This document shows positions 301 to 32,383 of a stretch of DNA of 58,395 bases, piece by piece. The notes below the pieces were generated by a model, which saw nothing but the letters and a program-made list of their open reading frames with translations, searched no databases and was not told where the DNA came from. The translations under genes and the position numbers were made by a program. Origin of the DNA: Raillietiella orientalis. Its lineage: Eukaryota. Location of the stretch: assembly GCA_036172245.1 (NCBI GenBank), contig JAYWIR010000155.1, positions 1-58,395 of the forward strand, written 5' to 3'. The number at the start of each line of letters is the position of its first letter. Position 1 is the stretch's first letter.

Positions 301-394
301 CGCTCCAGGGTGGACGTGTTTTCTCGGTGCCCCTCGTGCCAGGAAGTCTCCCCCAGTTCAAGCGTCGTGTGGTTCGGTGGTCGATCAGGCAGCG

Positions 395-2069: not shown

Positions 2070-5000
2070 TGCCGGGAATCTCCTCCCGCCGTCGTCTGCG
2101 CATCGCCGTTTGGAACGTGAACGCCATGACAGACGCCGGCTGGAGACGAGACATGGTCGCCCTTCTCGAGTCCTACCACCTTGCGCTGCTGCAGGAGATC
2201 CACGTGATCTCTGCAAAACAAGCGCAAGAGATCGAACGCATCTCCGGAGAGTGGCTATGGTACAGGTGTGGGAGAGCGAAGGGTTGCGGTGTCTCCTACC
2301 TGCTTCGGCCAGTCGTCGAGGCCGCGGCTCGGGGCGTGCGGTTCGACGATCACGGTCGTGTCGGCCAGCTGACTCTCAGGTGGTCCGACTCGATCGATCT
2401 GATCGTCACGAACGTGCACGCACCGAGCGGCGCGGACCTGATGACCAGGAGGGCGAGGAAAGAGTTTTTCCTTGCCCTCCATCGCGACTGGTTGACCGAG
2501 GCAGGCGTGCGGAATGCCCATCTGGTTGCAGGCGATTTTAACGTTCGTCTGAAACCGCATGGGCCGAATCACGAGCGTGACCTGGTCAACGAGGTGTGCG
2601 CGGCGGTGCACACTTGTAATTTGTTGGCCAGTGTACCAGGGATGGAGGACAACATCGATCACGTGTTCCTTGACGAACACCTGTGCACTCGTGTGGGCAG
2701 GCGCTGCAAGTTGCCGTGCGAGTTGTCCGACCATCGACCAATCGTGTTTGAAATCCATCCGCGCGAGAGGGGCCCCCCCTCGTCAGCGTGGCGTTTGCCA
2801 AGGGACTGGCAGAAGCTCCCGGACGCGACGGAACATCTCCGCACGTTTATACGGAGCTTTAGGATGCAGACATTTCAGGATTGGGACCGCTTTAAACGGT
2901 CGGTCCAGGAGTTCTGCGACCAGTTCCCACTGCGCCGCCTACCTGCAAGATTTGGGGACGGGTTACGTAACGAACGGGCCTATCTGCAGGCTCGCCGTTA
3001 CGCCAGGATCCCCGACATCCGCAGGCTGGCGGAATACAAAGGGGGAGCCGAAAGGCAATCCTGGCTCTCAGGATCAGACAGCTTGCTGGACGACCAGGGC
3101 CGGGAGCATTCGGCACCCGCTCAGATCCGCGGTTTGCTGCGGCGTTTTTACTCCTCCTTGTACGCAAGAACGCCTCCCGAGCGGAATTTCTCACGAATCC
3201 TGCTTTCGAAAGGCGCTCCTGCGATCTGTAAAGAGGAGAAAAAGTCCGTCGACGAGTCTTTCACGATGGGCGAGATCATCTCGGCCATCGGAAAGCTCAA
3301 GAGGCAAAAGGCTCCAGGGGAGGACGGCCTGTCCGCGGAGTTTTATCAAACTAACGCGGCTGAACTAACCCCCCTGGTACATCAACTCACCTTGCTGATA
3401 CGCGAGACAGGTGACGTTTCCGCCTCGTTTCGTTCGGCAAAGGTGCGGCTTCTCCCTAAGGGAGGAGATCTGAGGAGCATGAACAACTGGCGTCCCATCA
3501 CAATAGTGAATGCGGATGCCAAGTTGATAGCTAAGGTTTGGGCTGAGCGTTTGGGACGGGTTGCAAACGCCTTCATCAGCCCGGAACAGACGTATGCTGT
3601 TCCGGGGCGAAGCATGGAGGCGAACCTGTTCCACGCTTCCACCTGGCTAGGGCTCCAACACGAAAGCGGCTTGATGCGAACAGGGAATTCGGGTAGTCCG
3701 TCATTCATGCGACGGATGTTCAAATGGTGGAGGGAGCACTTGCGGTCGCTGTCGACTTGCGAAAAGCATTCGATTGCGTAAACCAGAATCTGCTGCTGAA
3801 GCTTTTGGAACGCTTGGGCTTCCCGGCCTCATTATTAACCTATCTGCGCTCTAGCTGGCGCGATTCGCAAATCAATGTAACTTTCAGCGGGAATATTGTT
3901 CACGGCGTGCCGGTGCGACGTGGGATCCGGCAAGGAGACAGCCTGAGCCCCTTGCTTTTCAGTACCTACTTTGAGTTTGTACTGAGAGCGTACAGGGAAA
4001 CTCTGGCGCACCTGCCGCCTGAATGCGCCGGAACGCCTGCGGTTTCAGCATATGCAGACGACCTCCTGCTACTGCTCTCTATGTCCACCCCGGCTTCGGC
4101 GGTCGAGAAGTTCTTCGAAATGCTGAATCGAGGAACCGGGCTTACGGTGAACAGGGCGAAGTCGTCCGTGATAGCAGTTGGTGCGGCGTGGGCAGGGCAG
4201 CAGCACTGGTTCCGTTTGGGGATCCTCACGGTGAGGTACTTCAAGTATCTTGGTGTGCCGTTGTTGGACTACTCCCCTGCGGAAGCGTGGTCCGGCTGCC
4301 TTCAAAAAGTAGAGACGGCGATCAACCCGCTCCGAGGCGGCAGGTTTTTCCTGCCTGAACGGGCCGCGGTTTGGAACATGTTCGCGGCTCCTGTCCTCCG
4401 TTCCCTGCTGCTTGTTTGCCCCCCCACCGAAAGGATCAAAAAGCGGACGAAGGTCCTCCTCCGTATCGCCGTTTGGGGCAACAAGAGGCCCCTAGTCCGC
4501 CTGAAGGACTTGCGCGCTCCGTGTCGGGACTGTGGTCTCGGCCTCCTTACATTGGAGCGGCTGGAGCTGCATTTCCAGTTCTGGATTTTGGCACTTGTGC
4601 CGGAGTTGTGGTGCACCGGTTGGTGCGTCCCTGCACTTCTCCTCCTCCAGCAAACCACCGGCAAGACGGGACTTACGTCGTTTCTTGCACTCCATCGAAG
4701 CCGCATCAACCGATGTGGGCTTCAGCTACGGAGGGTGGTTGCGCTGGCAAGGAGAAATCAAGGATGGATCACCTGTCTCCCCGCGAACGGTAGTGCCTGG
4801 TTGCAGAAAACCGTTCGTACGTGGGGACAGTTCGGCATGCAACCCTCCCATCAGGAACGAAGGTTCCTGTTTGGGTGTTACAGAAGTTGCACGCTCCGTG
4901 AGATCCTGGAGGATCATAAGAAGAGAGCGTGGTCAGGAAGAACCCTCCTCGCTGCTGCGCTGGACTCCCTAGTGGAACATCAGGACAGCGATGCTGCGGC

Positions 5001-5515
5001 GAAGTGGGAGGTTACAATCAAAATCTCCGGGAAGGAGAAGAAGCAGAGAGAGTGGAAGACGGGCCAGCTAACTGATGCTGCAACCCCGAGTACGCCTCCT
5101 AATGGACTTCTGCGCTGGGGAGCGCTGCTGTATGTTCCGATTAAACATGTGAAGTGGCCCCCGATTCCTATGAACACTTTCATCCTCCCCCTAAAATGGC
5201 AACAGTTTCCCGTTGCAGCACTGGGGACTACCCTGCAACGCCCGTCGACACCACTGGACTTGGGGAGCGGTGGATCCCAATTGTGTAAGGTGCGGGGAAC
5301 GGGAGTCCCTCCCGCACCTCCTAGTGGATCGTGATGCCCTTCGGCCCCTTTGGTTCCGCTTTGCCGCGGCCATCGGTATCCCTTGCAGCAACCCCAGGGA
5401 CGCACTAAAAGCCTTCTTCGTTGCCGACGCCCTGCGGCCAGCGTCCTCGATAGCAGCCTTGTGCTGCCTTCGAGGGATCGTCGCCGCCTGGAGCACGGCG
5501 ACGGGAGGACAGAGA
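2069..5515 (+). pseudogene. A1 ORF2: APE endonuclease, reverse transcriptase, C-terminal zinc finger (frameshifted)
   Basis: APE motifs WNVN, LQE, AGDFN, IDHVF, SDH. RT motifs KAPGEDG, WRPIT, DLRKAFD, GIRQGDSLSP, YADD, KYLG. Zinc finger CVRCGERESLPHLL. Frameshifts near 3720 and 5210. Confidence 0.92.
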
Positions 5516-7160: not shown

Positions 7161-9437
7161 CTGACCTAGACGCGAAGCGAATAGCCCGACAAGCAAATTG
7201 GCGTCCGTATTCACAAAAGTTATCAGACGCCAGTTGTTCAGATTTCTGAGATCTCCTCCTTTCGAAAGAAGCGTCACTCTGGCTGTCGGAAAGGAGGCGG
7301 GAACATCGCATTCGTCTCCGATCAGCCTGATCAACTTAAGCAGCAAGGGTTCCAGCTTTTCTGCGAAGCTCTAAAAGAACTCCGCGGGCAAGCCGTCTTC
7401 CCCAGGAGCTTTCCACCTCTTGAGCCTTTTGATACCGGGGAGAATTTCTACGGTGTTAAGATGCTCGTCGAGGCTTAACGATTATTCCTCCTTCGTTATC
7501 GAAGCATCAAACGGAAGAAAGCGTCGAGAGGCATCTTGATCTGAGGGCGCCGTGGAGTAAAGGGAATTATAATCACCACGCACGAGATTAAGTTCCGACG
7601 CCGGAGACGGACATTTCTTGCCGTGGCCGTCCAGAAAGCTGTTCAATACGGATTGCCATGCTTAAAGTTCGGGCCCGGCTCGGTAGTGGTCCAGGCGACG
7701 GACATCAGGGGTTCTCTCTTTCTGACGGGCCTGTCAATAGACTCGATGGTTGCAAGGACCATCGTCGAACCCTGGAGGCAGGCGTCCCAGAGAAAACTGC
7801 TCGCAGAACTCCCGGATCGAGGCCTTAAACAGGTCTTAACCCTCGAATACCGGGCCGAAGGTTGCAAGGGCCCTCGAGAAATCCCGGGGGCGGGCGGTTA
7901 AAGCGAACTGCTCGCAGAACATCCGGACGGAGGCCTTAAAAAGGTTTCAATTCCAAAGACTCTTGAGCGTGACGCCTTTCAGGAATTCATGAAGGTGTTC
8001 CTATGCTGCTGAGAGTCGCGTTCAGTCCCCCGGCACACGACACTCCCTGGATGGAGGTCTGTTGTTGCGAAACCTCATCTCGAAATTTAGCCGGGAATGG
8101 TCCGACAGCGTCGACGCGATCTTCCCCCGTTTGCCGGCCCGTGAACACAAGTGAGCGTCCAGGAAGACGTGGACGATGTTGCGGACAATTCTTTCACCTG
8201 CAAACAGGTTCAGCACACGCATGGCGCCGCAGAACTCGTTCATCGCGTTCTCTTGTGTTTCATGTTCACCAGTTCGCAGTCGAAGATTGAGAACTCCTGT
8301 TATCAGGTGAGCCTTTCGCACGTTCGTGTTCGCCACACAGTCGCGTTCCAGGGATTCAAGCAGCCTGGTACGGTTGCTATATCCCTTTTGACCGGTATGG
8401 GCGTACACATTCGTGAAGATCAGATGGATCGAGACGGAGCAGCCGAAAATCAGCTGAGCAACCCGATCGACGTCATCGAAGCGCACGCCTTTCACGGCAG
8501 CGTCGATGGCTGGCTTGACGAAGAACGCGACTGCGCAGGTGTTGCGGAGGCCGCATTGCCGGTACATCCCACCCCCCGCGATCGACTTGATCTCCTGGAC
8601 GTCTGCCGCGAAGATCACGTGGATCTCCTGCAGCCGGTCAGGTTGAGTTCATGCAAAGTGTCGGCTGTACCTCGCCTGTTACCGTCGTCGCGCACCCCGT
8701 TGACATTCCAACAGGCCGCGCGGATCCGACGGCGACTGGCGAGCCCACGTTGTACTCCGGGAAAAGTGGCAGTCCGGCGTCCGCCACCTACCAGGGCAAG
8801 ATGCTAGGTGGAGGAGGAGGGTCAGGTGGTGAAGGCACATAATCCCCCTCCTGCATGGGTAACAGCGCGCCGAGCGCTGTTACCGATGCAGGTGGGGTCG
8901 CACCTATCTGTTGACCCTCCTTAATGGAGGCGGGCTGTTCAGGGTCGGCGACTGCAGGGAGGACTTTACCTACCTGCTCACCCTTCACCATGGGGTGGCC
9001 TTCTCGACAACTTCGGAACGTTGGAATTCCTCCTTTGGGGTTCCCACGCTGGCGACGGCTTCCGTGTCCTCCTCCTCGCTGGAGGAGGGGAAGCACCTCC
9101 TGGGCTTCTGGGACTTGCGTTGCGACTTTCTAGGGGGTGCCTTGGAGGAGGAGGAGCTGCTTCCGGCATCTAGGATTAACTCACCTGAAGAGGCCTTCTT
9201 TGCAGGATCCGGCTTTCGTACGGCCTTGCGCGAGGGGTTCTCCCGCTCGGCCAGCGTCACCGCGAGCTCCTGTGCCGCCTCTGCCAATGCGACGTCCTCT
9301 ACTTCGAAGAACGCGTCGCGCAGCTCACCCTCTGTGTAAACCGGAGGTTCGCAGTCGCGAGCCTTGGGCGCAGCGGAAACGGCGAGGGGAGGCTCGTCGC
9401 TCCAGGTGGCAGCCTCGGGAACGGCGATGCGTTCGAT
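7155..9437 (-). mobile_element. Copy B2 internal fragment: ORF1 C-terminus (9437-8755), APE and RT N-terminus (8750-7155), degenerate
   Basis: ORFs 8985-9443, 8022-8618 (APE) and 6696-7346 (KGGDLRNLNNWRLIT). Confidence 0.85.
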
Positions 9438-9885
9438 TTTCACCCAAATTTCTCCAAGTCGTTTATTGAAAAATAAACTTTATAATGAAATTATGTATGG
9501 CTGTGGGAATGCTCCAGCCAGAAGCGAAGAACCACAGAGCCTGTCAATTCACCGGTTCCTAGACCGGTATGGTCCACCAAGGCAGCAGGGGAAAAGGAAA
9601 AAACCAAAAACTAAACAAAAAAGACAAAGGGTGGGAGGGAACGGGAAGGGATCACTGATGCTGCTGGGGCCGCATCATGCCTCTCAGGATGCAGGCAAGC
9701 TCTTGTTTGATGTGAACATCCAGGTGGGGCCATCGCGACGCCCTCCTCAGGAATTGGGAGGCGCACTGGATGGCGTCCTGATCGCTAGGTCCTCCCGTCG
9801 CAGTGCTCCATGCGGCTACGATCGCACAAAGGCAGCACAAGGCTGCTATCGAGGACGCTGGCCGAAGAGCGTCGACAACGATGCA
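9438..9885 (-). mobile_element. A1-type 3' end fragment (ORF2 C-terminus, 3' UTR, terminus)
   Basis: Encodes DALRPASSIAALCCL...ASRWPHL. A degenerate AATAAA-hairpin end lies at 9467-9438. Confidence 0.85.
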
Positions 9886-11479
9886 AGATTCCAGTTTCTG
9901 AACACCCCTAGCAAACAACGGTTAAGAGCACTCTTAACGACTCTGGCGTCGGCGAAGGCTGTCAGACGGTACAGGCGAGAAGAAAGCCCTAGAGTACCGA
10001 ACGAAGCAAAAGGAAAAAGAAAACGCAGCGCAAAAAACCGTGCCGCGAAAAACTTCGCGCTTGTACGGTAAAAATAGAGCGTGTGGAGTCACTCGCTGTC
10101 GCCACCGGGGGAGCAATCTCCACCCTCGAGTCCGCCGAAGCGGCGACGGACGATGGCGAACCATCTGGAAGGAAAGAGGAGGAACTGAGCGCCTCGCTCG
10201 ACGCGATCGAGGAAGCCGCCTTCCAGCAGGCGGTGGAAGAACTCGAGGCAGAACTGCAAGGCCTTGAGAAGGACACTCGGAAAGGCTTACGAAGGCCGGC
10301 CGCGAGGAAGGCTCCGGAGGTAGGTGAGGCCGATCCGGACGGCGAAAGTGCGTCCTCTTCAGCGAAGGCGCCACCAAAGGAGACGGGACGTAAGTCTCAG
10401 AATCCCAGGAGGCGCATCCGGATCAATAAGGAGGCGGATGGATCCGCCCCCGAAGGGGAAGCCGGCAGCGTGGGAGGCGAGTTTGGGAAGCTCTCATTTC
10501 TAGACACCGTGCAGCTGGCGACCCCCATGGATGAGGAATTACAGGTGGGTGAAACCCCCCTTCCTCTGCACGGCCCTGACGAAGACTCGGCCTCAATGGA
10601 GGAGGGAGTAGCGGAGCGCGACGCACCCCCTCCTCCCAGCGTCCCACCCGACAAGGTGGCAGGTGCTTTATTGCCTCTTTCCCAGGATTAACACCTGGGC
10701 TTGCCTGTCGTTGTACGATCCGCGTAGCCTGCTGGAACGTCAACATGCTGCGCGACGACGGTAACAGGCGGGATACGGCCGACACCCTGCGCGACTTTGA
10801 ACTGGCGCTCCTGCAGGAGATCCAAGTGTTCTCCGCGGAGAACGTCCAGGAGATCGAGAGGATCGCAGGAGGTCGTCTGTTTTTGCAATGCGGCGCTCGC
10901 AACACCTGTTGCGTCGCCTTCATCATGAAACCAGCAGTCGTTTCCTTCGAAAAGGACGTACGCTTCGACAACGACAGTCGGGTTGACCAGCTCATCCTTA
11001 GGTGATCCGACTCGATCGACGTTGTCGTGACCAATGTGTACGCTCCGAGCGGAGGTTGCGGGTACAAGGAAGGTTCCCGGTTCCTTGAATCCCTGAAGCG
11101 CGACTGGCTGACGGATACAAACGTGCGCAAATTGCATCTGATCAGTGGCGATTTCAACATTTGCCTGGTCTCAGGTGTGCCATTCGGGAAAAAAGACGCA
11201 GTTAACGAGCTGTGCGCTGCTATGCACACGCGCGACTGGTTGGGGGACCTACCGTAAATGGTCCAAAGCGTGCACCACGTCTTCCTTGACTCCAACCTGT
11301 GCCCACGAGTCGGCAGACGAGGGAAACTTTCGTCGACGTTATCGGACGATTTCCGGTTGATATTCAAGGTTATGCCTCGCGACAAAGGACCACCATCCAG
11401 GGCGTGGCGTCTGCCCGGCGACTGGACGCGCATCTCAGGTGCGGCGAAACATCTACTCCAAGTACTAAGAGGCGTGATC

Positions 11480-11493
11480 CTCCGGAATCTCCA
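11480..11493 (+). repeat. Target-site duplication of A2 (left copy; right copy at 17027-17040)
   Basis: Exact 14-bp direct repeat CTCCGGAATCTCCA. Confidence 0.95.
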
Positions 11494-11706
11494 TTGAAAC
11501 CCGGGTGCGCCGGGACGTTCATTCTCACGAATAAACTTATACAATCTGTGACTGGACCAGTAGTCCAGCCACGCCCTGGAAAGATATAGCCTGCCGGGCT
11601 ACCGGTGCGCAGACCGGCGCGGTCGACCTCGGCAGCAGAGGGGAGGGGGAACGAAACAAAAAGAAAACAAATAAGAAACAAAAATCAGGGAGGGAGCGAA
11701 AAGATA

Positions 11707-14700
11707 TCACAGTCTGCTGGGAGGGTTCGTCATCCTCTGGAGGATGCCGGCAAGCTGTTTCTGCTTGTGTGGTTCCAGATCGAGCCATAGCGTCGCCATC
11801 CTGAGGAAACGGGCGGCATACACGTTGGCATCCCTGTCGCTAAATCCTCCCGTCGCTTGCTCTATGCCACGAAGATCCCGCGTAGGCAGCACAGGGCTGC
11901 AAGCGAGACCGCTGGAGGCAGGGCGTCACGGACGAAGTGGGGGCGCAAAGCGTCTCTAAGGTTGCCTCCGGGGATCCCCAGGGCTGCGGCAAAGCCTTCC
12001 CACAAGGGACGGAGGGCAACATAATCCACTAACAGGTGGGGGAGGTATTCCCTCTCCCAGCACCTGACACAATTAGGGTTGACACCCCCCCGCGTCCAGT
12101 GGTGTCGGCGGGCGTTGCAAGGAAGCCCCCAATGCAACAATATCAGTGCCGACTGTTGCCACTTCATAGGGAGGGTGCGCGAGTCCATGAGCACCGGAGG
12201 CCACTCGAGATGTTCCTCTGGAACATCCAGTAACTCTCCCCAACGGAACAGTCCATTTGGGGTGGTCGTCGGGATCGCAGCGTTGGTGAGCTGACCCGTT
12301 CTCCAATCTCCGATCTTCTTTGCCCTCTTGGCGATCTTCACAGTTACCTCCCATTGTGCCGCGACGTCGCTGCCCAGATGTTCCCGTAGGGTAGGCAGTA
12401 CCGCAGCAAGGGAGGTTCTTTGTGCCCACGCTCTCCTTCGGGGATTCTCGATGATTCCTCGGAGCGTGCGGCCGTCATGCGGCCCGAACAGAGCTATTCG
12501 CTCGTGTTGCGTGCTCTGCTCCTGAATCATCGCCCACGTGCGGACGGTTTCCTGCAACCAGGCAGGACCGTCCGCGGGGCGTACAAGGATCCGCGCCGAG
12601 TTGTTCTTCACGAGCTTGGCCGCCCTCCGAAGTTGAAGTCCGCAGTGGCAGATGGGGCTTCGGAGTGCAAAGTAGGACGAGAGTCCCGCATTGCCGGTGG
12701 CCCGCTCGACGAGGAGACATGCAGGGAGGCACCAAGGGGTGCACCAATTTCCTGCCATAAAGGCAACAACTCGGAACTGGAGCTGTAGCTCCAGTCGCTC
12801 CAACGTCAGGAGGCCCAGACCACCATCCCGACGAGGAGCGCACAAGTCCGAAAGACGGACTCGGGGCCTCCCTCTGCCCCAAAGGGCGATCCTCAGGAGG
12901 TCCTTCGTCCTCTTCTTTGACTCCGCTGAGGGGGAGCAAACAAAAAGCAAGGGGCGCAGGAGGGGGGCCGCAAACGCGTTCCAGGCCGCGGCCCGTTCCT
13001 GCAGGTAGAACCTGCCGTCCTGGAACGGGCCGATCGCCGCCTGAGCCTTCTGAAGGCAGCCGGACCACGCTTCCTCAGGGCAGTAATCCCCCAACGGCAC
13101 ACCAAGGTACTTGAAGTACCTCACCGTGGGGATCCCCAAACGGACCAGTCCTGCTGCCCTGCCCACGTCGCTACGACTGGCATTACGGACGACTTCGCCC
13201 TGTTCACCGTCAGTCCTGTTCCACGACTCAGCAGGTCTAAGAAGTCCTCGACCGCCGAGGCCGGGGTGGACATAGGCAGCAGCAGCAAAAGATCGTCCGC
13301 GTATGCCGAAACCGCAGGCGTACCGGGGCAATCGCACGTCAGGTGCGCAAGAGTCTCCCTGTACGCTCTCAGCACCAATTCGAAAAAGGCGCTAAAGAGC
13401 AGGGGGCTCAGGCTGTCTCCCTGCCGTATGCCGCGTCGCACCGGTACTCCGTGCACCGTTTGCCCGCTGAAAAGAACATTAATGAGCGCGTCGCGCCAGC
13501 TGGATCGCAGGTAGGCCAACAAAGAGGCCGGGAAGCCCAAGCGTTCCAGAAGCTCCAGCAGGAGATTCTGGTCGACGCTGTCGAATGCTTTACGCAAGTC
13601 GACAGCGACCGCAAGTGCTCGCTTCCCCACCCGACCGTTCCGTCTCCCGCCAACGGACGCACTGGAATTCCGGCTGCTCAATAAGCCCCTTCCTTGTTGG
13701 AGCTCTAACCATGTGGAAGCGTGGAACAGGTTCGCCTCCATACTTTGCCCGGGAACAGCATATGTCTGTTCCGAGCTGATGAAGATGTTGGCGACCCGTC
13801 CCAGACGCTCTGCCCACATCCTGGCTAGCAACTTGGCGTCCGCATTCACTATTGTGATGGGACGCCAGTTGTTCATGCTCCTAAGGTCTCCTCCCTTAGG
13901 GAGGAGCCGCACCTTTGCTGAACGAAACGAGGTGGGAACGTCACCTGTTTCGCGGATCAGCAAGGTGAGCTGATGTACCAGGGGAGTAAGCTCTGCCGCG
14001 AAAGTTTGATAAAATTCCGCAGGCAGGCCGTCCTCCCCTGGAGCCTTTCGCCTCTTGAGCTTTCCGATGTCCGAGATGATCTCGCCCATCGTGAAAGGCT
14101 CGTCGAGGTTCCTTTTCTCCTCCTCCCCGATTGCTGGAGCACCTTCCGGAAGCAGAAGTCGTGAGACAGCCTGCTCCGGAGGCGCCCTGGCGTACAGGGC
14201 GGAGTAAAATTTCCTCACTATCCCGCGTTTCTGAGCGGGAACCGAGTGCTCCCGGCCCTGGTCGTCCAGCAAGCTGGCCGAACCGGATTGCCAGGCTTGC
14301 CTCTGGGCTCCCGCTCGATACTCTGCTAACCTGCGCATGTCGGAAGTTCTCGCGTAACGTCGGGCCTGAAGATAGCGCCTTTCGTTACGCGGCCCCTCCC
14401 CAAATCCCGCAGGTAGGCGATGCAGAGGGAACTGGTCGCAGAACTCCTAGACCGACCGCTTGAAGAGGTCCCAGTCCTGAAGTGTCTGCATCCTGAAGCT
14501 CCGAATAAACGCGCGGAGGTGCTCCGCCGCGTCGGTGAACTTCAGCCAGTCCCCTGGCAGACGCCACGCTGACGAGGGGGGGCCCTTGTTGCGCGGACGC
14601 ACTTCGAACATAATCCGACCATGGTCCGACAGCTCGGATGGTTCCTTGCCGCGCCTGCCCACCCTAGAGCATAGTTGCTGATCAAGGTACACGTGATCGA

Positions 14701-15283
14701 TGCTTTCCATGGCCGTGTCCCCGGCCAACAAGTTGCGCGTGTTCATTTCTGCGCACAACTCGTTGACGCGGTCGTTCAGTGTATCCGGCGCACCTGAAAG
14801 CAGGCGCAGATTGAAATCACCTGCGATCGGGTGCGCTTTGCGAACTCCTGCATCGGTCAGCCAATCGCGTCTCAGGGCAAGGTAGAATTCCCTTCTTGCC
14901 TTCGCCTTCAACGCCTTATTTTTGCTAGGAGCGTATAGGTTGGTGACTACCAGGTCGATAGAGTCGGACCAGCTGAGAGTCAGCTGACCGACGCGACCTG
15001 CGTCATCGAACCGAACGTCCTTTATTGCGGCGTCGATGGCTGGCCGAAGCAGGAAGGCGAAACCGCTTGATTTCGCGGTGCCGCAACGCCACAACAGCCG
15101 CCCACCCAAGATACGTTCGATCTTCTGGGCTTGATCTGCGGAGATCACGTGGATCTCCTGCAGCAGCACCAGGTCGAAGGATGCCAGGGTGGCGGCCACG
15201 ACACGCCTCTTGCTGTCGTCGCTTAGCCCGTTCACGTTCCAACAGGCGATCAGAAGACGACGCCGAGAGGCGATTCCCGGCAT
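11707..15283 (-). pseudogene. A2 ORF2 (APE-RT-zinc finger) with a stop and frameshifts
   Basis: ORFs 14447-15283 (APE), 13121-14338 (RT, YADD), 11862-13337 and 11707-11892. Confidence 0.92.
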
Positions 15284-16941
15284 TATGGCTGGGAAAGTGG
15301 CGTCGCGGCACCTGCCGCGGGGCAGGTGTAGGAAAGGTCCATCGGTACGAGGACCATCGGAACGAGGACGGAGGCCTCTTCAGGCGCCTGGGGTACCTGT
15401 TCGGCCTCCATCCTCACCATCTCCTACGTGTACGAGCGTGGAATTCTCTCGGGCGACGGGTCCCGGGAGTTTCCCACGCTCATGGCACCCTCGCTACCGG
15501 AAGCCATCTCTTCCCCTTCGTCGGGGGAGACGATCTTCCGGGGCATTGTGGACTTTCGTCCTGCCTTTTTGCGGGGTGCCGCGGAGATGGATGCTGTGTT
15601 TCCGGCCTTCAGCTCGGGGTCGGAAGTGGCCGACTCCTGAGGGGAAGCCGTACGCCTGACGGCCTTCTTGCCAGCCTTGGGGGCAACCGGCTGCAACGAG
15701 GCAGCCAGCTCCTCCGCGGCGCGCTCGAAGGCGACGTCATCGAGCGTGGGCTCGATGACGGACGCCGCCGCCTCGCTCCCCTCCTTGTTGACTTTGTCAA
15801 CGGAGGGTTGATCAGGGGCAGCAGCGAGTTCTTCAGCGCCGCATTCGTCGATGGCGGGAATCCGCTCTACAACGACGCAGCAGCTTTTAATTTTATCGCG
15901 GCGCAGAGCGGTTTCACTCTGTTTCGCCACGTTGTTTACCTTCTTATGGGAGTTTTTCTTGGGGTCGACCTTCTGCCACCCTGGCTCTTGACCCTCGCCC
16001 TCGACCTTTTCGGCGTTTTTCGCCGAAGTCTCGGGTCTGGCCTTCGCCTTGGTGGCGGAGGTGATCTTTTTAGCAGCAGCACGAGCTGGCAGCTCCTTTC
16101 TCTTTTTTGCCGCGCGCTTTCTCGCGTTTTTCGCGGACACGACGCGGACTGTGTTTTGGGGGCACACCAGACTGGTGTGCCTGGCTTGTTTGCATTGCTG
16201 GCACTGCACGCTCGGACACCTCATTTTAAGGTGACCAAAGCTGCTGCAGCAGGCGCAAACCTTGGGTTTCCCCACGTACCACACGTCAACGGATTCACCG
16301 TTGACGGTGAGTTTGTGGGGAATCTCACATCCCTCGCGAACCGTCACTCGCGCTGCACGCGGGCCGCCAAGCAACCCATCGTAATCGACAAAAGGAGTAG
16401 GCTTTCCCCACAGCGCGTGGACAGTTGGGAATTTTTCCAATTCGTTCCGGACGGCCTCCTCCGTCATCCGGAACGTGATGCCGGTCAGGTGAATGATCAC
16501 CGATCGGTCTTCAGTTATTGGGAGAAGCCTCCGGCTGCCCATACATGCAAGGGTTCGCAGAAGTCTCTGCGCAAGAGGTGCCTCCTTGCAGATAACTTCA
16601 ACAAATTGACCCTTGCTTCTGACGGACATAGCCAGAAGCTCCTCTTTCTGTACGCCGAGAACGAGCATCGCCTGTGAGAAGGCGCGCGCGTTCTTGGGAG
16701 AATATAGACCGCCTACCTTATATAGAAGGGGTGGGTTATGCCCCTCCTCCAGGTAAGCGCGCATTCTCGATATAGCTGCTGGCGTAGGTGCCGCAGCCAC
16801 GGCGTTCCAAGCCCTGGGTAGGGCCGGGGGCGCATCCGTGCTGGCGGGAGCCTCCACTGATGCAAGAGCCCCCATCTCCATCTGCTCCGGGGGCAATGAG
16901 GTCATCGCCTTCGGATCCTCACCGGTGGTGGTATCAGGCAT
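15283..16941 (-). pseudogene. A2 ORF1, zinc-knuckle protein (505 aa open, then premature stop)
   Basis: ORF 15424-16941 contains CACCSSFGHLKMRC and CQQCKQARHTSLVC. TAATG stop-start at 15285-15281. Confidence 0.88.
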
Positions 16942-19900
16942 TTCTGCCTAATCCTCCACCCACACCACGCACAAGCACCAACGGAAATGGAACTCAGGAG
17001 CAACGAAAAGACACGTCCGCTGGACGCTCCGGAATCTCCAGGACTGGGACCCCATAAAGGCCTCGGTCCGCGAGTTCTGCGAGGAGTTCTCTGTGCACCG
17101 CCTTCCCCGGGGATTTAGTGAGGAAACATGCAACGAAGGAACGTATTTGCACTACCATCGTTTCGCGAGGACCCCTGACATCGGTCGCTTGCCGAGTACA
17201 ATGCCTGGGCCAAGCGTCAGGACTGGCAAAACCGGGCCGTCTTGCGTGCTGGACGACCTGGACCAGGAATACTCGGACCCGGCATCTATACGTCGCCTGG
17301 TGCGTGGATTTTACTCCTCTTTACGCCAGGGTACCTGCTGAGTGGGACGTCTCGCGGCGCTTGCTTCCAGATGGAGCCCCGGCCATAGGGCAGGAAAAGA
17401 AAGAAAGCCTTGACGATCCTGTTACGACCGATGAAATCATCACCGCTATTAAAAGGCTCAAGAAACGTAAGGCGTCAAGAAAGGATGGCCTGCCGGCGGA
17501 GTTCTTGGAGTGCTTCTTTGCAGACATGACCCTCCTGGTGCTCCAATTGACACAACTGATCCGAAACGAAGGCGATGTTCCCGCTTCGTTTCGGTTAGCC
17601 AGGGTGAGGCTCCTTCCTAAAGGAGGAGACCTTAGCAAATTATGCAACTGGCGTCCGATCACGATTGTGAACACGGACTCCAAGCTGCTGGCTTAACTGT
17701 GAGCTGCGCGTCTGGGGCGGGTAGCCGACAGCTTCGTCAGCCTGGAACAGACGTACGCTGTCCTCGGGCGAAGCATGGAAGTGAACCTGTTCTTTGCCAG
17801 CACATGGTTCCATGTGCAACGCGAGAAAAATCTAGAAAAAAAACGGAATTTCGACAAAGATGATTGGAGGGCGCCAGCGAAGCAAGTAAGGAACGACTAA
17901 GAAAAGAAGAGGGCTCTAGCGATCGCATTCGATCTGCACAAAGCGTTCGATTGCGTGGACCAGAAACTTTTTCAGGAGCTTCTAAATCGCATGGGCTTCC
18001 CGGACACCTTAACGGCCTACCTGCGCGCCTGCTGGCGCAATGCGAAAATCAACTTGTTTTTTAGAGGACAGCACGTGTTAGGCGTGCCGGTGAGGCGCGG
18101 CTCCTGGCAGGGCGACAGCCTTAGTCCACTGCTCTGTAGCACCTATTTCAAACTGGTGCTCAGAGCATACAGGGTGACATTGGCTGGCCTGCCAAGCTCG
18201 TGTCCAGGGACGCCGGCCGTGTCGGCGTATGTTGACGAACTTTTGCTCCTGCTGCCCATGTCAGCCCCGGCTTCGGCAGTCGAAGATTTCTTCGACTTGC
18301 TGAGCCGTAAGACAGGATTACGGGTGAGCAGAACCATGTCATCGCTGGTTGCGGTTGGTGCAAAGTGGGCAGGACGACCTGATTGAATTTGCCTGGGGAT
18401 CCCCACGGAGAGGTACTGGAAGAACCTCGACGTTCAGTTAGGGGACTTCTACCAGTCAGAAGCCTGGTCAAGTCGTCTCCGAAAATTGTAGTCAGCGATC
18501 GGCCCGTTTCTGCAAGGCAAGCTTCACTTGCTGGAACGGGCTGCGGTGTAAAACGCGTTCGCAGCCTCTTTCCTTCACCCTCTGCTTTTTGTTTGCCCCG
18601 CATCCCGTGAACTGAAAAAAAGAACAAAGGACCTTGTACGCAACGCCCTGTGGGGCGGCCGGAGGCCTCGTTTGCCTTTAAAGGATTTGAGCTCTTTACA
18701 TCGGGACGGAGGTCTGAGCGTCCTCACGATGAAGCGAATGGAAACACAACTGCGGTGGCGTACTCTAGCCATCGCAGCGAAAATGTGGAAAACGTCTTGG
18801 TGCGTGCAAGCTTGCTCGTTCGCTAGACCTGTGTCCGAGACTGAAGGACTTGCGTCTTTTCTTCTGTGCAGCAGCCGTAAAATAAGAAGATGCGAACTTC
18901 TCCTGGGACGCATGGTCACCCTGGCGAAGGAGAACGGGTAAATGGCCTGCAGCCCCGCCAACTCCAGCGCATGGCTAGAAGAAACAGTTGGAACGTGGGC
19001 AAAGTTAAAAGACATCAGTAAAGAATCCTGCAACCGCCTGCGCACAGGCATCTACACCCGCTGTATGCTGCGAAACATGATGGTGTGTCCCGCCAGAAGA
19101 ACTTTGGCGGAAAAAACTCCACTGGCCACGGCGCTGCCCTTCCTACGAAGGGCGCTTCAAAACAGCCGGAAGCCGAGATGGCAAGATTCCTTCCAGATAG
19201 CGGGCAAGGAGAAGGATCTAAGCGGGTGGACAATGAGGTGACTGGCAGACGCCACAACCTCAAGCGTTCATCCGCATGAAATACGGAGATGGGGTGAGCT
19301 GCTTGGCATCCCGGCGGATGACCCAGTGTAGCCCCTGTTATTTGGAGACGCATCCACTCTCCTCCTCAAGTGGCAGAAAACGGCGCTGTTGTTGGTGCAC
19401 TGAGGTCTTCCTTGCAGCGCGCGCCGCCATCCCTCCCCCATCTGTTAGCGGACTGCGCTGCCCTCCGGCTTTTTTGGGAACGTTATGCTACGACCCTCTC
19501 TATGCCGGACGGCAGTACCCCTAGAGACGCTGTGAGACTCCTCTTCGTGCGAGACGCCCTGTCACCAGACTCAACACTGACAGCGCTCTGTTGCCTCCAA
19601 TTTATTGTGGCCGCCTGGTGCGGAGCCAACAGAGGAAGCAGCGACAGGGACCCCATCGTACACGCGCGTCGCTACCTGCGAATCGCAATTTGCTTGTCCC
19701 ATCTGGGAGCTATGACGAGGGAACTCGAGGGTTTCCTGGAAAGGATAGTCTCTTCCTCTAGCTGGTTGTGATCCCTTCCCGGCTCATCAAATAGTTTCTT
19801 TTTGTTATTTGATTTATTTTTTTTTTGTTTTACCCCCTATCCCGTCCGCTGCCGAGAAGGACAAGCTGTACGCAGAACCGGCTTCCTGGCAGGTCCCATA

Positions 19901-19977
19901 GAATTATGGCCGTAGCGGGACCTGATACCGTAATGTAAAGTGTTTTTTAATAAACGCCCCGGTGTGACCAGGTGAAG

Positions 19978-20700
19978 GCTCCCCAGGTCCACTGTTGTCG
20001 ACAGGCGTTGCAGGGGAGTCCCCAGTAATGCAACAGGAATGCCGACTCTTGCCATTTTAAGGAGAGGTTGGAAGTGTTCATAAGAACCAGGGGTCACTTC
20101 AGATATTGTATCGGAACATCGAGCAGCGCTCCCTAGCGATGAAGTCCCTTGGAAGGCGTACTCGGGGTCGCAGCATCAGTTAGCTGGCCCGTCTTCCACT
20201 CTCTCTGCTTCTTCTCCTTTCCGGAGATTTTTATTCTGACCGCCCACTTCGCCGCAAAATCGCTGTCCTGATGTTCCACTAGGGAGTCCAGCGCAGCAGC
20301 GAGGAGGGTTCTTCCTGACCACGCTCTCTTCTTATGATCCTCCAGGATCTCACGGAGCGTGCAACTTCTGTAACACCCAAACAGGAACCTTCGTTCCTGT
20401 TGGGAGGGTTGCATGCCAAACTGTCCCCACGTGCGAACGGTTTCCTGCAACCAGGCACTACCGTTCGCGGGGAGACAGGTGATCCATCCTTGATTCTTTC
20501 TTGCCAGCGCAGCCACCCTCGGTAGCTGAAGCCCACATCGGTTGATGCGGCTTCGATGAAGTGCAAGAAACGACGGAAGTCCCGTGTTGCCGGTGGCTTG
20601 CTGAAGGAGGAGACGTGCATGGACTCACCAACAGGTGTACCACAACTCCGGCACAAATGCCAAAATCCGGAACTGGAGCCGCAGCTCCTGCCGCTGCAAT
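19978..20700 (-). mobile_element. A1-type ORF2 fragment (post-RT region)
   Basis: ORF 20133-20516 is nearly identical in translation to A1 4740-5115. Confidence 0.88.
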
Positions 20701-22006: not shown

Positions 22007-25000
22007 CGGACGTGTTCTGTGTTGCTCCTCGAGCGTGATTTCTTTCCGTCTTCTTGTGTGTGGTGTGCCCCAGTGCGTCACTGGGATGTCCACGGAGCCC
22101 CTGCAGGTAAAATGGATGTGTAGGCTGCTACTGGCAGTGAAGAGTCTACTCCAGATGTCCGGTCCGCCTCTGATTCTTGTGTCTCGCCACCTGCGAGAAG
22201 CTTCGCCGCCTTCCTCAAGGAGGCGGCAGCCAACGGAGCACCGCCCGACAAAGCAAAGCTGCAGGCATATGCAGCCCATGGCTACAATTTTGCGCTCTGC
22301 TATCCGCTCAGTGCTGCTATCTCCGACAAGGTCGGAGAAAATTTATGGAACGACCTTTTGCGCGTCGTGGTCCGACAGGACGACCTCCTGGCAGTCATGC
22401 CGGTTAACGCGCTTGGACACTGGCAGGTGCACTGCAAAGAGGCATTCCTACTCCAGCGCCTTCTCCGCACCCCGCTAAACATACGCGGGAAGAAGGTCGT
22501 CCCGACGGCCATGGACCAGTCGTTCGTGGTCCGATTGTTCGCCGTCCAGGTGGACACGCCCGATCGCGTGCTCGTCGGTGCACTTAGTGCATTCGCCACG
22601 GTGCACGCACTGAGGAGAGCAGACAATCCGATCAAAAGGATTGCATCTTTCTCCAGCGGACTTGCCATGACGCGTGTCATCATGGCGGATAGGAGGCAAA
22701 TGCCTCCGCACTTGCAGGTGGGCGATGCGATCGTCCACCTTAAATTTGCCGGTCAGCGACCGGCTTGCGGCATTTGCGGTGCTGAGGGCCACCGTCCATT
22801 GACGTACCCTTCTCGCCACTGCTGCTATTATAAACAGCTCGGCCACTTCCTTTGAGAGTGCGCTGAGCTCAACAGAAAGCGGCAGGCGTAAAGCCGCCAA
22901 CAATCTACCCCGTCCGCGCCGAAAGAATCCCCCGTTGTACCACGGTAGAAATCGGGCGCGAAGGGCAGGACATAATCGAGTGGCGGTCTCGCGCTAAAGG
23001 GCGCGGTTGCTTCTGGGAAGCAATCATCTTAGACAGCCGCGAAGCCGGGAAAGATGCCACATCGCCCTGGGGGCCAATCGTCCCCTCCGATGCAGCCCAA
23101 CTGTGCGGGCAGGCACTCAATGGATGCTGCTGAACCGTCCGCGTGCGCTTGCGCGTCCAGCGGAACACTCGGGAAACCGTGCGAAGCACCCTCGAAGCTG
23201 CCTCTGAACGGAAGTCTCCACCTACGGCGTGGGTGATCACGTCTTCCACGCCGAAGGCACGAGCAACGAAGGCTGCAATAGCGCCTCGCGGGACGACGGC
23301 AATGACCGCCGTTTCGCCCGCATCGGCTAAGGAGCAGGTGCAGTGCGTGATGGGGACAGAGCCGTCTCCCGTCGCGAGCTCGAAACCTGAGCCGGCATCG
23401 CAGGCCAAGCAATTGAGGGAGGCGTAGGCCTTCCAGGAGGACGTCCCCGACGCAGGCTAGACTCGGGTCTCCAGGACGACCACAAAGAGGAAGAAGAAGG
23501 TTGACCCTTCAATATTCCTCATCCTTCAGGTGGGTGGGAGACAGAAGAGAAGCACGCCAAAGAAGGTGCGAACCAAGGAACGCACTACGGCTGCGTGCTC
23601 TATCTCTGTCGCTTCGCACGTGAGGGCGGCTGCGGAAACCCGTGATGCTGGCTGCGAGACTGGCAAAACGCCAGTCTCGCGCCAGGCACTCGGACTCCGA
23701 GGTGGAGTCCGAGTGCAAACAAACGGAGCGCGCATCCCGGGGTAAGCCGGTAACGCGGCGGGCTAAAGTGCGAAAGCACGAGCCTGTTGCCGGAGGCGGT
23801 TCCGGCTCCTGCACGAAGACCAAGGCGAAGATCCTTGGCTCCCAGGACTCAGCTAAGCGCGATGTGGCGGCGAACGGGAGCGATTCCGCTTCCCAATCCG
23901 CTCTTCTACCAGCTGATTCCTCGCCGGACGGAGCGAGGAGCACGCCGTCATGTCCGCAGCAGTAATGCGTGGACTCGCGTCCGCTCGTCGCGTCAGCGTG
24001 GCCTGTTGCAATGTCAACGGGCTGCGTGATGCTGACGAAAGGCGGACGGTAGCCAACGCTTTGCGTGCGTTCGATCTGGTGCTGCTGCAGGAGGTACATA
24101 CCATATCCGAACGGCAGGCATCGGATCTGGAAGAGCGCGCGGGCGGGACGCTACACTGGCGGCAATGCTCCGCGCACACGTGCGGAGTCGCGTTCTTCGT
24201 CGGAAGCAGGGTGACGGAGGCGGTGCGGAACGTTTGTTTTGACGAGGAAGGTCTTGTGGGCAAACTAATCCGCAAGTGGTCCGAATCGATCGACCTGGTC
24301 GTTAGGAACATCTACGCGCCGAGCGGCTACCGGCATTACGCCCAGCGACTCGCATTCCTGGGTGGCCTGCGAAGCCGCTGGCTAGCTGACTCCGGCCCTA
24401 ACGTGGCGCACCTCCTTGCAGGAGACTTCAACGTCCACCTGCTAACAGAGGAGAGATGCCGCTTGAGGGAGAAGCAACTGGTGAGCGAGGTATGCGCGTG
24501 CGTGCGCGTGCAAAACTTGCTTGCTGGTGAGCCCGGGATGGAGAGATCGCCGGACTATGCGTTCCTCGATGAACACCTGCTTTCACGAGTAGGTCGAAGA
24601 TGACGCCTGCTGTCCGCGATTTCAGATCATGCGAGACTGCATTCCGAGCTCCTCCCGCTTGACAAAGGGCCTCCGATGAATGTCTGGAGGTTGCCGGCCG
24701 ACTGGCTTGGCAATTCGTAGGCGGTGGAGCATCTTCGCCAACACCTCCGCTGCTTCGCCATCCGTGAACTTGATTTTCACCCGGTTGCGCCGGGACGTCT
24801 GTTCTTTTAAATAAAACAAACGTTGGTGGCTGACCAGGTGGTCCGGCCACGCACTGGTATACAAAATTAAGCCTGCCGGTTCACCGGTTCGTATTCCGGC
24901 ACGGTCCACCGCGACAGCAGAGGGGCCAAGGACAAAACAAAAAATAAAAAAAAAAAAGAAATATATGAAATCAAGATCTAAGGGCCACGGGAAGGGATCA

Positions 25001-28000
25001 CGGTCCGCTGTGGGGCCGCTACATCCTTTGCAGGATGCAGGCAAGCTGTTTTTGGATGTTTGAATCCAGATGGTTCCATCCTGTTGCCTTCCGCATAAAT
25101 TCGGCTGCGCACTGGACGGCACCCTTATCGCGAGGTCCTCCCGTTGCTTTGCTCCATGCAGCGACGATCCCGCGAAAGCAGCACAGAGCTGCTAACGCGG
25201 CCGAGGGCCAAAGGGTGTCGCAAACGAAGAGGGATCTGATTGCGTCTCTGGGGTTGCCACAGGGGTTACCGATTGCCGCTGCAAAGCGGTTCCAAAGGGG
25301 CCGAATAGCCACACAATCCAAAAGGAGGTGAGTGAGAGAATCCCGTTCTCCACACCTCGCACAATTAGGGCTCAACGCTCCCCAGGTCCAATGGTGTCGG
25401 CCGACGTTACAGGGGAGTCACCAAAGCAGCAACAATAGCGCCGACTCCTGCCATTTTAAAAGGAGAGTGGAGGTGTTCATCAGCACCGGGGGCCACTTTA
25501 ATTGTTCCCGCGGAACATTAAGCAGCTCGCCGCAGCGCGAAAGTCCAATAGGGGTGGTAGTCCGGGCCGCGGTATCGCAGAGAATTCCCGTCTTCCATTT
25601 CCCGATCTTTTTCTCCGTACCAGAGATCTTCATGTAAACATCCCATTTCGCAGCAGTGTTGCTGTTTAAATGTTCCGCGAGCGCATACAGCATTGTAGCG
25701 AGGGAAGTTTTTCTTGCCCACGCTCGTTTTTGGGGGTTCTCCAGGACCTCTTGGAGCGTCAGGCGGTCATTACGGGCGAAGAATTGTTTCAGCCCTTGTT
25801 GGGTGCGTTGCTGGTTGCTCATTGCCCACGTCTGAAACGATTCCTGCAGCCATGCAGGTCCGTTAACGGGGCGACAGCAGAGCCATGCTGCGTTCTTCCT
25901 CATCAGGTCAGACACTCTCAAGCCCTGTTCCCCGACTTAGCAGGTCGAACAACTATTCGACCGCCGATGCGGGGCTGGACATAGGGAGCAACAGCAGTAG
26001 GTCGTCCGCATATGCTGACACCGCGGGCGTACCGGGATAGTCGCGCCGCAGGTGCTCTAGAGTTTCCCTGTACGCTCTCAGTACCAACTCGAAGTAGGTA
26101 CTGAAGAGCAAGGGACTCAGGCTGTCTCCCTGCCGTATGCCGTGTCGCACCGGTACGCTCTGCACGGTGTATCCACTGAAAAAGATCTGGATGAGCGCGT
26201 CGCGCCAGCAGGATCGCAGGTAGGTCAGCAAAGAGACCGGTAATCCCAAGCGTTCCAGGAGCTCCATGAGAAGCCTCTGGTCGACACAGTCGAATGCTTC
26301 ATGCAAATCGACTGCGACTGCGAGGGCTCCCTCCCCCCTTATCCATCCCGTTTCCTCGCGGCGGACATTCCGAAAGTCCGGTTGCCCATCCTGACTCTTT
26401 CCTGCTGGAGCGTGAAGAAGGTGCTGGCGAGGAACAGGTTAGCATCCATGCTCCGCCTGGGAACAGCATATGTCTGCTCCGGGCTAATAAAGCTTTCCGC
26501 TAACCGCCTCAGGCTGTCAGCCCACAATTTCGCCAGCAACTTGGCGTCCACGTTCATCACGGTAATCGGCCGCCAGTTGCTCATGCTCCGAAGGTCTCCT
26601 CCCTTAGGGAGGAAACGCACCTTCGGCGAACGAAACGAGGTGGGGACGTCGCCCGTTTCGCGGATCAGCAAGGAAAGTTTCTTCACCAGAGGAGTGAGCT
26701 CTGCCGCGAAACATTGAAAAAATTCCGCTGGCAGGCCGTCCTCCCCTGGAGCCTTCCGCCTCTTGAGCTTTCCGATGGCCGAGATGATCTCGCCCATCGT
26801 GAAAGGCTCGTCGAGGGTCTTTCTATCTGATATCTCCCTGATCGCCGGAGCGATTTCCGAAAGAAGAAGTCGCGAGACATCCCGTTCCGGTGAAGCGCGC
26901 GCGTACAGGGAGGAGTACAATTTATTTAATAAGCCTTTTACGTGGGCGGGGGCCGAGTGCTCCGAACCCTAGTCGTCCAGTAATTTGGCCGACACGGATT
27001 GCAACGCCTGCTTTTCGTCTCCAGCACAGTATTCGACTAGCCTGCGTACGTCTTGTGTTCGCACGTAACATCGAGATCGTAAATACCATCTCTCGTTACG
27101 CACGCTTTCACCAAACCCGGCAGGCAGGAGGTTTATAGGGAACTCGTCGCAAAAATTCCGTACCGAGCGCTTGAAGCGGTCCCAGTCCTGAAGCGTCTGC
27201 AACCTGAAACCTTGTGTGAATCCGCGGAGATGCTCCGCGGCTTCCCGAAGTTTCAGTCAGTCCCCCGGTAAGCGACACGCAGATGACGGAGGACCCCTAT
27301 CGCGTGGGCGCACCTCGAGTACGATCCCGTCATGGTCCGACAGTTCCGACGGTAACTTCCCGCGCCTGCCCACGCGTGAGCATAGGTGCTGGTCAAGAAA
27401 CACGTGATCTATGCTGTCGGTTATTTCCGGACCTCCCGCGAACAAGTTGCGCGTGTGCATCTCTGCGCACAGCTCGTTCACGCGGTCGCGAAGTGTGTCG
27501 GACGCACATGACAGCAAACGCAGGTTAAAGTCACCTGCGATTAGGTGCGCTTTGCGCACTCCCGCTTCGTCCAGATATTCGCGCCTCAAGGTAAGGAAGA
27601 AATCTCTCCTTGCCTTTGCCCTTAACGCGTCGCTGCCGCTTGGGGCGTACACGTTGGTAATGACCAGATCGATGGAGTCGGACCATCTGATGGTCAACTG
27701 CCCGACGCGTCCGGCACTATCAAACCGTACGCCCTTTGCCGCAGCGTCGACAGCTGGACGAAGAAAAAACGCGACACCGCAAGATTTAAGGGTGCCGCAA
27801 CGCCACAGCAGCCGTCCACCCGAGATACGCACGATCTCCGTTGCTTGATCTGCGGAGATCACGTGGATCTCTTGCAGCAGCACCAGGTCGAACGATGCCA
27901 GGGTGAAGGCCACGTCTCGCCTCTTGCCTTCGCCGGTTAGCACGTTTACGTTCCAACAGGGAATCCGCAGACGGCGGAAAGAGGCGATTTCTGGCATTAA

Positions 28001-32305: not shown

Positions 32306-32330
32306 GAGTGTGGACGTGTTTTTCTTCGCT
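32306..32330 (+). promoter_or_regulatory. Conserved element 5' motif GGACGTGTTTT (representative copy), putative internal promoter element
   Basis: Present within ~12 nt of 13 5' junctions across groups A, B and C. Function is inferred. Confidence 0.5.
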
Positions 32331-32383
32331 CTCGACACCGTGCATTCATCCGCTTCATCTTGGCGTCGTACATTTTGACGACG

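Follow-up and report, generated by a model that had tools for sequence, protein, structure and literature searches.

How did two retrotransposons without long terminal repeats (non-LTR elements) that differ by about 25% come to interrupt two different host elements at the same nucleotide? The question is raised by a 58,395-nt stretch of the Raillietiella orientalis genome (assembly GCA_036172245.1, contig JAYWIR010000155.1, positions 1 to 58,395 of the forward strand), hereafter the window. Nearly all of these 58.4 kb, with a GC content of 0.53-0.61, are taken up by related long interspersed nuclear elements (LINEs) that lie inside one another on both strands. Two of them, A2 and A3, are inserted in the hosts B3 and C0, respectively, in the region coding for the linker between the apurinic/apyrimidinic-type endonuclease (APE) and the reverse transcriptase (RT). 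Both are antisense to their plus-strand hosts and lie directly before the sequence GGACTGG. We consider it probable that A2 and A3 are independent insertions of L1-like elements of one clade (clade A below), and that the endonuclease of these elements nicks a short sequence in the linker coding region of LINEs.

A2 and A3 interrupt the same linker nucleotide

The coordinates of both insertions and of the other features are collected in Table 1. A2, which is decayed (its reading frame is interrupted by a stop at 14444-14446 and shifts between the RT and the C-terminal part), is flanked by an exact 14-bp target site duplication (TSD), CTCCGGAATCTCCA. In a repeat search of positions 11300-17200, with perfect direct repeats counted from 12 nt up, this was the sole 100%-identical pair among six direct-repeat families, and no long direct or inverted terminal repeats were detected at the ends of A2. 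The A2 3´ junction is also spanned by a perfect inverted repeat of 13 nt, which was dropped, as this size is expected by chance in 5.9 kb. Removal of A2 and one repeat copy from B3 gives CTCCGGAATCTCCA/GGACTGGGAC (here and below, a slash in a junction marks the insertion point), with the host frame LRNLQDWD. Both the duplication and the empty site had been named in the original prediction, made from the sequence alone, and its coordinates and strings were correct.

An uninterrupted version of this site was present in sequencing run X1, which contains 0.21 of the sampled window words and from which 535 contigs were aligned to the window. One of these contigs lacks A2: it follows the window as far as 11454, has 25 different letters where the window has 11455-11479, and resumes at 17027. 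It is a paralogous clade-B copy with a single 14-mer. Of the 535 contigs, which were mostly short, 332 were less than 90% alike to the window and 12 were at least 99% alike. With so few close matches, the junctions might be thought to be artefacts of assembling a repeat-rich region. A mis-join, however, would not yield a full-length element with family-typical termini and an exact 14-bp duplication, and we find such an artefact barely credible.

The left junction of A3 reads ...CCGTGAACTTGA/TTTTCACCCGG, with the C0 side ending in ...ATCCGTGAACTTGA, and the right junction reads ...CTCG/CTTGA/GGACTGG. Both termini of A3 are canonical for its family (5´ CGAGAGCGGACGG, CGAGAGC-GGACGG; 3´ ...CCGGGTGAAAA), and CTTGA is therefore a 5-bp duplication. 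It is host-encoded, given that relatives of C0 read CTCGAGGACTGG and CTTGCGGACTGG in the linker alignment. These junctions and termini agree with the predicted A3 empty site, in which only CTTGA is duplicated. When all 10 APE-RT linker sites of the window were aligned (11 rows, since C0 is split), the A2 and A3 insertions shared one column, directly 5´ of GGA(C/T)TGG, as had been proposed. Both of the A2/A3-type copies in the window thus lie at the linker site.

The two linker insertions are independent

Two trees of the window copies were built, one from the APE and RT (13 rows) and one from the 3´ region (12 rows). They contain three clades: A (A2, A3, E1 and fragments), B (B3, D, b7.8k, K47k and H56k) and C (g, h, C0 and j52k). 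Support in the APE+RT tree was 100/100 for A, 93/100 for B and 100/100 for C, and clade A was supported at 100/99 in the 3´ region tree. The hosts of A2 and A3 fall into different groups, as the original prediction held, with B3 in clade B, C0 in clade C and the split supported at 100/100 in the APE+RT tree.

A shared position could also be inherited, if one ancestral insertion had been copied together with its host by segmental duplication or conversion and the copies had then diverged. Composite copying does exist in the window, where 46340-46805 (minus strand) is 93.6% identical to 32201-32669 across host and insert, and A2 and A3 themselves are only about 75-78% alike. The hosts, however, are less alike than the inserts: identity is 64.1% (152/237) and 71.7% (76/106) between the flanks of B3 and C0, compared with 78.5% (179/228) and 76.0% (165/217) between the A2 and A3 ends. 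Neither the length nor the sequence of the TSD is shared (14 bp for A2 and 5 bp for A3), and a perfect A2 TSD misfits an insertion older than the A2-A3 split. The terminal branch of A2 is also short (0.084, with 0.20 for A3 and E1, in the APE+RT tree), which together with the perfect TSD indicates that the A2 insertion is much younger than the split between the A2 and A3 lines. Collectively, these data support two independent insertion events and make a single copied insertion very improbable, in line with the earlier argument against duplication as the cause of the shared 3´ junction.

The insertions might also be directed only to the region, through the chromatin of a LINE cluster or a centromere, with the identical position of A2 and A3 a coincidence. 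Clade-B insertions in the window, which have no common site, would fit this explanation, as would Zepp-type clusters, described in the part of the literature covered here as nested insertions without a defined motif. By our own arithmetic, however, the chance that a second random insertion into a ~5.5-kb element hits the same nucleotide in the same orientation is ~1 in 11,000 per pair. The same coincidence is seen at two more motifs, with four junctions at GCGTTYGA and three at ATT(T/C)CAAT. Regional targeting alone is thus quite improbable as the source of the shared position.

Clade-A elements have the domains of L1-group LINEs

The first open reading frame (ORF1) of the elements has Cys/His knuckles in its translation and was assigned no Pfam family, and ORF2 encodes the APE, linker, RT and a long C-terminal domain, in this order. 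The A2 APE matches PF03372 (E 3.8e-13), and the motifs GDFN, SDH and NxYAPS are readable in its translation; the RT, downstream of the APE, matches PF00078 (E 2.8e-22). By sequence, the solved structure closest to the A2 APE is human L1-EN (2v0r_A, E 7.3e-06; 1vyb_A, E 2.9e-05). A search for RT relatives in a collection of 5.8 billion proteins gave only one close relative, P0001 (73% identity), which comprises the RT alone and begins past the linker. The remaining RT matches had at most 31% identity, and the named ones were L1/Tx1-like (best named 25-31%); the name 'TX1' on match P0050 is an automatic label. By their APE, their RT and a TSD without terminal repeats, the elements are APE-type non-LTR retrotransposons of the L1 group. 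With A2 as the blastn query, 27 matching pieces were found in the window, and four A2 protein segments used as tblastn queries gave ~70.

The 5´ terminus is kept in at least 10 copies, nine of them intact and one degenerate, and nine termini have a common motif, which in A2 is CGTCCAGC-GGACGTGTC.... A poly(A) or simple-repeat tail, typical of L1 proper, was absent at the 3´ ends inspected, which run straight into the TSD (...CCCGGCGCACCCGGGTTTCAA for A2, ...CCGGGTGAAAA for A3). All 3´ termini have CCCGG-N5-CCGGG ~6 nt from the end (in A2, ...CCCGGCGCACCCGGG-TTTCAA), and the A2/A3-type terminus consists of the hairpin CCCGGCGCA-N-CCGGG followed by the tail. A hairpin was predicted in all five of the 3´ termini that were folded and, by analogy with stringent-type LINEs, likely serves as an RT recognition element. 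The ORF2 frame of A3 and of the KAFD-type copies described below appears to extend ~190 nt beyond that of A2, to a conserved ...GTGATCCCTTCCC; the earlier stop in A2 indicates that its C-terminal end was truncated by mutation.

Other clade-A elements insert at GCGTTYGA

Clade A includes a subclade, supported at 100/99 in the 3´ region tree, that we refer to as KAFD-type. Its members are E1, an element starting at 56522, an element with a 5´ end at 50458 and a probable 3´ part at 45375-46349, and an element represented by 9437-9895 and 19979-20712. The four KAFD-type insertions, one of which contributes two of the five junctions, are all at GCGTTYGA-type sites, and KAFD-type junctions take up 4 of the window's 11 copies of GCGTTYGA. 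Three of the events are in the K-A-F-D codons of host RTs, antisense. The 5´ end of E1, for example, adjoins TCGAACGCCTT (287-297), in which the KAFD codons of a minus-strand host RT (10-297) appear as their reverse complement, and the 5´ end at 50458, which matches the 3´ part at 45375-46349, lies beside AAAGCTTTCGA (50459-50469). E1 and the 56522 element are 90.8% alike and their host flanks 76.6%; with the inserts more alike than the flanks, these events are independent. Such parallel use of a site by sister elements favours sequence-specific nicking as their general habit.

The fourth event is in a different context. The 3´ ends at 45375 and 9437 adjoin ...GCGTTTGA and ...GCGTTCGA, respectively, and the latter sequence (9429-9436) belongs to no RT but to the ORF1 of a clade-B element on the minus strand. 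In an alignment with two other clade-B ORF1s, the DNA at this site happens to read ATGCGTTCGA. Insertion at the DNA motif outside its usual protein context suggests that the DNA sequence is read, and not the position in the host. This copy is 5´-truncated, and ~70 nt of target are missing on that side. Three nesting levels are visible at 9429-9437/20713, where the KAFD-type element in ORF1 was later split by B3 and B3 was then entered by A2; the 3´ terminus of B3, ...CCAGGTGAAGG, adjoins the C-terminal coding region of the minus-strand KAFD-type element. One degenerate consensus for the linker and KAFD sites was tried and rejected. The only shared positions are T at -4 and A at -1, and we therefore treat the two as separate specificities.

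The KAFD-type sites would also suit another explanation, in which the element RNA, or its read-through 3´ flank, picks the site by pairing with the nicked target and the APE cuts loosely. Here what the sites have in common, GCGTTYGA/, precedes the nick on the primer side and is also all that the ectopic ORF1 site has in common with them; if transcription of a resident copy ran on into its flank, the RNA would contain TCGAACGCCTT and might anneal to a primer of this kind. The linker insertions do not follow this pattern. The primer sides of A2 and A3 differ (…TCTCCA and …ACTTGA) and are not complementary to the element tails (TTTCAA and TGAAAA), while the shared GGACTGG is located beyond the nick, where it cannot prime. 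As the sequence upstream of the nick differs (CTCCA vs CTTGA) and GGACTGG is shared downstream, RNA-target pairing cannot explain the shared position, and we regard it as an unlikely basis of site choice.

A model for insertion at the linker site

LINEs that encode an APE integrate by target-primed reverse transcription, in which the first nick corresponds to the 3´ junction. In the case of A2 and A3, the APE would nick the host sense strand at 5´-...A/GGACTGG-3´, with first nicks at ...CTCCA/GGACTGGGAC (A2) and ...CTTGA/GGACTGGTAA (A3). The freed 3´-OH would then prime synthesis of complementary DNA on an element RNA that ends in the CCCGG-N5-CCGGG hairpin and a 6-nt tail, without poly(A), and the other strand would be cut imprecisely, 5 to 14 nt away, to give TSDs of variable length. 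We propose that the target is recognised by the APE, possibly aided by other parts of ORF2, and that the preference may hold genome-wide. Recognition of the host sense strand would place the insert antisense. Since the conserved L-Q/E-D-W coding motif is present in every family of the cluster, clade A included, insertions would pile into LINE copies and generate a nested cluster. The sequence AGGACTGG is found in 7 copies in the window compared with 1.93 expected, a number reached in 0 of 100 shuffles, and two of the seven copies are occupied, both at linker sites (B3 and C0).

Several observations weigh against this model. The other five AGGACTGG copies, three at linker sites and two elsewhere, are empty; the true recognition sequence thus probably extends beyond 8 nt, unless the sites are simply seldom occupied. 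The linker insertion events number only two, and no further A2/A3-type copy was found outside the window in a metagenome scan or in run X1. The scan, with a pattern specific for the A2/A3 3´ terminus, returned 49 loci, none of which had blastn similarity to the window and whose contexts were bacterial-looking; these were rejected as chance matches. The 3´ hairpin, although conserved in sequence, folds no better than shuffles (z -0.67 to -1.27) and has no covariation. By their 3´ flanks, the clade-B elements B3, D and E1' have no common target in the window, which suggests that part of the nesting may reflect a regional rather than a sequence preference. Finally, reconstruction of the nest breaks at the 5´ vs 3´ flank of D, at 7143-7157, at 46340-46349 and at 53130-54800, with what look like later deletions or rearrangements.

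Target change within clade A

A2 and A3 share clade A with the elements that use KAFD-type sites, and at least one target change must have taken place inside this clade. The original prediction described A2 and A3 as a sister lineage with a switched target. The common clade, the different target and the change are all borne out, but A2 and A3 did not form a clade in either tree. The 3´ region tree gave (A2,(A3,(KAFD-type))), with A3 and the KAFD-type elements grouped at 95/94, and the APE+RT tree gave (A3,(A2,E1)) at 82/82. Polarised sites that group A2+A3, A2+E1 and A3+E1 were counted at 35:28:10 in the APE, 26:36:19 in the RT and 26:23:30 in the C-terminal domain. The APE thus favours A2+A3 (35:28) and the RT A2+E1 (26:36), neither significant by our own estimate. 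With trees and site counts in disagreement, the branching of A2, A3 and E1 appears to be near a trichotomy, and the trees are equally compatible with a linker target that is ancestral and a KAFD target that is derived.

In the APE protein, A2 and A3 agree and E1 differs in 58 of 282 columns, compared with 29 columns for each of the other two patterns. These differences are densest in the N-terminal columns 24-39 and in the stretch right after GDFN, which is LRLLSGAPDTLNDRV in A2, LRLLSCASDTLRDRV in A3, VRLKPHGPNHERDLV in E1 and, with a 2-residue insertion, LLSDDWSRPRERALPI in clade C. Both stretches are candidates for target choice in a comparison that includes one KAFD-type APE only, a decayed one. 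The segment after N(V/L)YAPS, singled out for comparison in the original prediction, does differ (ALKAKARR and ALRAKARR vs LMTRRARK), but less densely than the other runs.

A third coding motif and other junctions of the nest

The GDFN codons of host D are occupied by two clade-C elements, g and h, head to tail and 92.6% alike. The tandem is bounded by an 8-bp duplication, read as ATTTCAAT at 32297-32304, ATTTCAAT at 38212-38219 and ATTCCAAT at 44124-44131. The branch of the upstream copy g is 0.008-0.011 in the two trees, compared with 0.057-0.071 for h, as expected if a second element had struck the site regenerated by the first; g thus looks the younger of the two. A third GDFN junction is the one at 46340-46805, and its 93.6% identity across host and insert suggests that it may be a copy of the same event.

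Given the three motifs, we tentatively raise the possibility of a guild of LINE lineages, with each endonuclease tuned to a different frozen ORF2 motif (GDFN, L-Q/E-D-W or KAFD). If so, LINEs would parasitise LINEs, their own family included, at targets that cannot mutate away in active copies; specificity would switch within a clade, and a self-growing nested cluster of the Zepp or centromere type would be a by-product. Such a guild would supply a sequence-level mechanism, and a simple testable rule, for the nucleation and growth of LINE clusters. It would also represent transposon-on-transposon competition in which target escape is blocked by purifying selection, and would offer a tool for mapping target-choice loops, in the form of naturally occurring APEs that differ in specificity (three GC-rich sites) but are closely related in scaffold.

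We also noted other features of the nest. The clade-B element b7.8k has a 113-nt tandem duplication (7728-7954, minus strand, 81/113 identical), visible by alignment only and unreported by Tandem Repeats Finder. Its first unit begins at GGAATTG, the equivalent of GGACTGG and thus the A2/A3 nick position. An A2/A3-type TSD would not cover the duplicated side, and any connection with an aborted insertion is conjectural. Host D is flanked 5´ by the plus-strand C0 (RT about aa 40) and 3´ by a minus-strand clade-C copy (RT about aa 68); these flanks cannot be one target, which implies a rearrangement or a hidden junction. In ORF1 of D, a 57-nt tandem repeat (31186-31340; 2.7 copies, 80% matches) has extra copies that are absent from the aligned clade-B ORF1s. 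In the region 5509-6381, the C-terminal coding end of E1 is cut by a 5´-truncated clade-B copy (5510-6364), and 16 nt, possibly an E1 remnant, separate this copy from the next element. The latter begins at 6381 with an intact 5´ terminus and breaks off at ~7157 against a minus-strand RT.

Table 1. Positions of the insertions, their hosts and related features in the window
Feature	Position	Strand	Remarks
A2	11494..17026	-	Full-length clade-A non-LTR element, 5533 nt; identified by domains, TSD and termini
A2 ORF1	15424-16947	-	
A2 APE	14447-15379	-	PF03372
A2 RT	13121-14446	-	PF00078
A2 C-terminal domain	11862-13391	-	
Left A2 TSD copy	11480..11493	+	CTCCGGAATCTCCA; end of B3 APE-linker
Right A2 TSD copy	17027..17040	+	CTCCGGAATCTCCA
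GGACTGG in B3	17041..17047	+	Directly 3´ of the putative first nick; D-W codons of LQDWD
Host B3, APE as far as linker	10658..11493	+	Clade B
Host B3, remainder	17041..19978	+	Linker, RT, C-terminal domain and 3´ end
A3	24774..29722	-	Clade-A element; both termini present, internal deletion in C-terminal region, several stops
Left A3 duplication copy	24769..24773	+	CTTGA
Right A3 duplication copy	29723..29727	+	CTTGA
GGACTGG in C0	29728..29734	+	Directly 3´ of the putative first nick
Host C0, APE as far as linker	23959..24773	+	Clade C
E1	298..5509	+	KAFD-type clade-A element
KAFD-type 3´ part	45375..46349	-	3´ end adjoins AAGGCGTTTGA (45364-45374), RT of plus-strand host D
KAFD-type 5´ part	56522..58395	+	5´ end adjoins TCGAACGCCTT (56511-56521), minus-strand host RT
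KAFD-type 3´ part	9437..9895	-	Continues at 19979-20712; split by B3
Tandem clade-C elements g and h	32305..44123	+	g 32305-38211, h 38220-44123; sense, in GDFN codons of host D
ORF2 ends compared	11700-11870, 9640-9790, 45580-45730, 24980-25130		
Host D flanks compared	29846-29880 vs 52620-53128		

Comparison with known systems

Site-specific LINEs are known for ribosomal DNA (rDNA), small nuclear RNA and transfer RNA genes, microsatellites, telomeres and DNA transposons. Site-specific non-LTR elements such as R1 and R2 in arthropod rDNA and TRAS and SART in telomeric repeats occupy one set position in one orientation, and their sister lineages use other sites; R2 cuts with a restriction-like endonuclease. 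The elements described here are similar: their site and orientation within a multicopy target are fixed, and the target differs between sister lineages. The targets of R1/R2 and TRAS/SART, however, are multicopy genes or repeats of the host, whereas here transposons supply the multicopy target. The domain order APE-linker-RT is that of human L1 ORF2p. Human L1-EN has a loose cutting preference for TTTT/AA-like sites and uses poly(A) for priming, unlike the elements here, which end in a hairpin and use GC-rich defined sites. In the literature searched, whose scope left out most subscription papers and Repbase, we found no description of LINE insertion at single nucleotides in conserved LINE coding motifs.

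Closer parallels are found among LINEs that target other transposable elements. According to the part of the source covered here, Tx1L of Xenopus targets the DNA transposon Tx1D, the crocodilian Tx1/SINEU-3 system inserts into Mariner-N4_AMi, and target choice in the Tx1 systems is ascribed to the endonuclease (PMC4494074). As in Tx1L and Tx1/SINEU-3, an APE-encoding L1-group LINE is found at a defined site inside another transposable element (PMC4494074, same part). In contrast to the Tx1 systems, which enter DNA transposons, the elements here target coding sequence in LINEs of their own superfamily and even of their own family.

The overall product is reminiscent of the Zepp/ZeppL L1 elements of green algae, in which, as far as the sources consulted describe them, LINEs inserted in LINEs form dense GC-rich clusters at putative centromeres. 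No insertion motif is given for Zepp clusters in these sources, whose scope did not extend to the original Zepp reports. They describe Zepp arrays as mostly 5´-truncated 3´ ends with poly(A), whereas in the window at least 10 copies have a 5´ terminus and poly(A) is absent. Also unlike Zepp, several diverged families coexist here and insertion is at a single nucleotide of a conserved coding motif. As judged from the sequence, the elements show a trait of Tx1/R1-like LINEs, in that independent insertions hit one nucleotide of a repeated target and face the same way. Likened by behaviour and not by clade, A2 and A3 would thus behave like site-specific APE LINEs of the Tx1/R1 type, with a product that resembles a Zepp-like nest.

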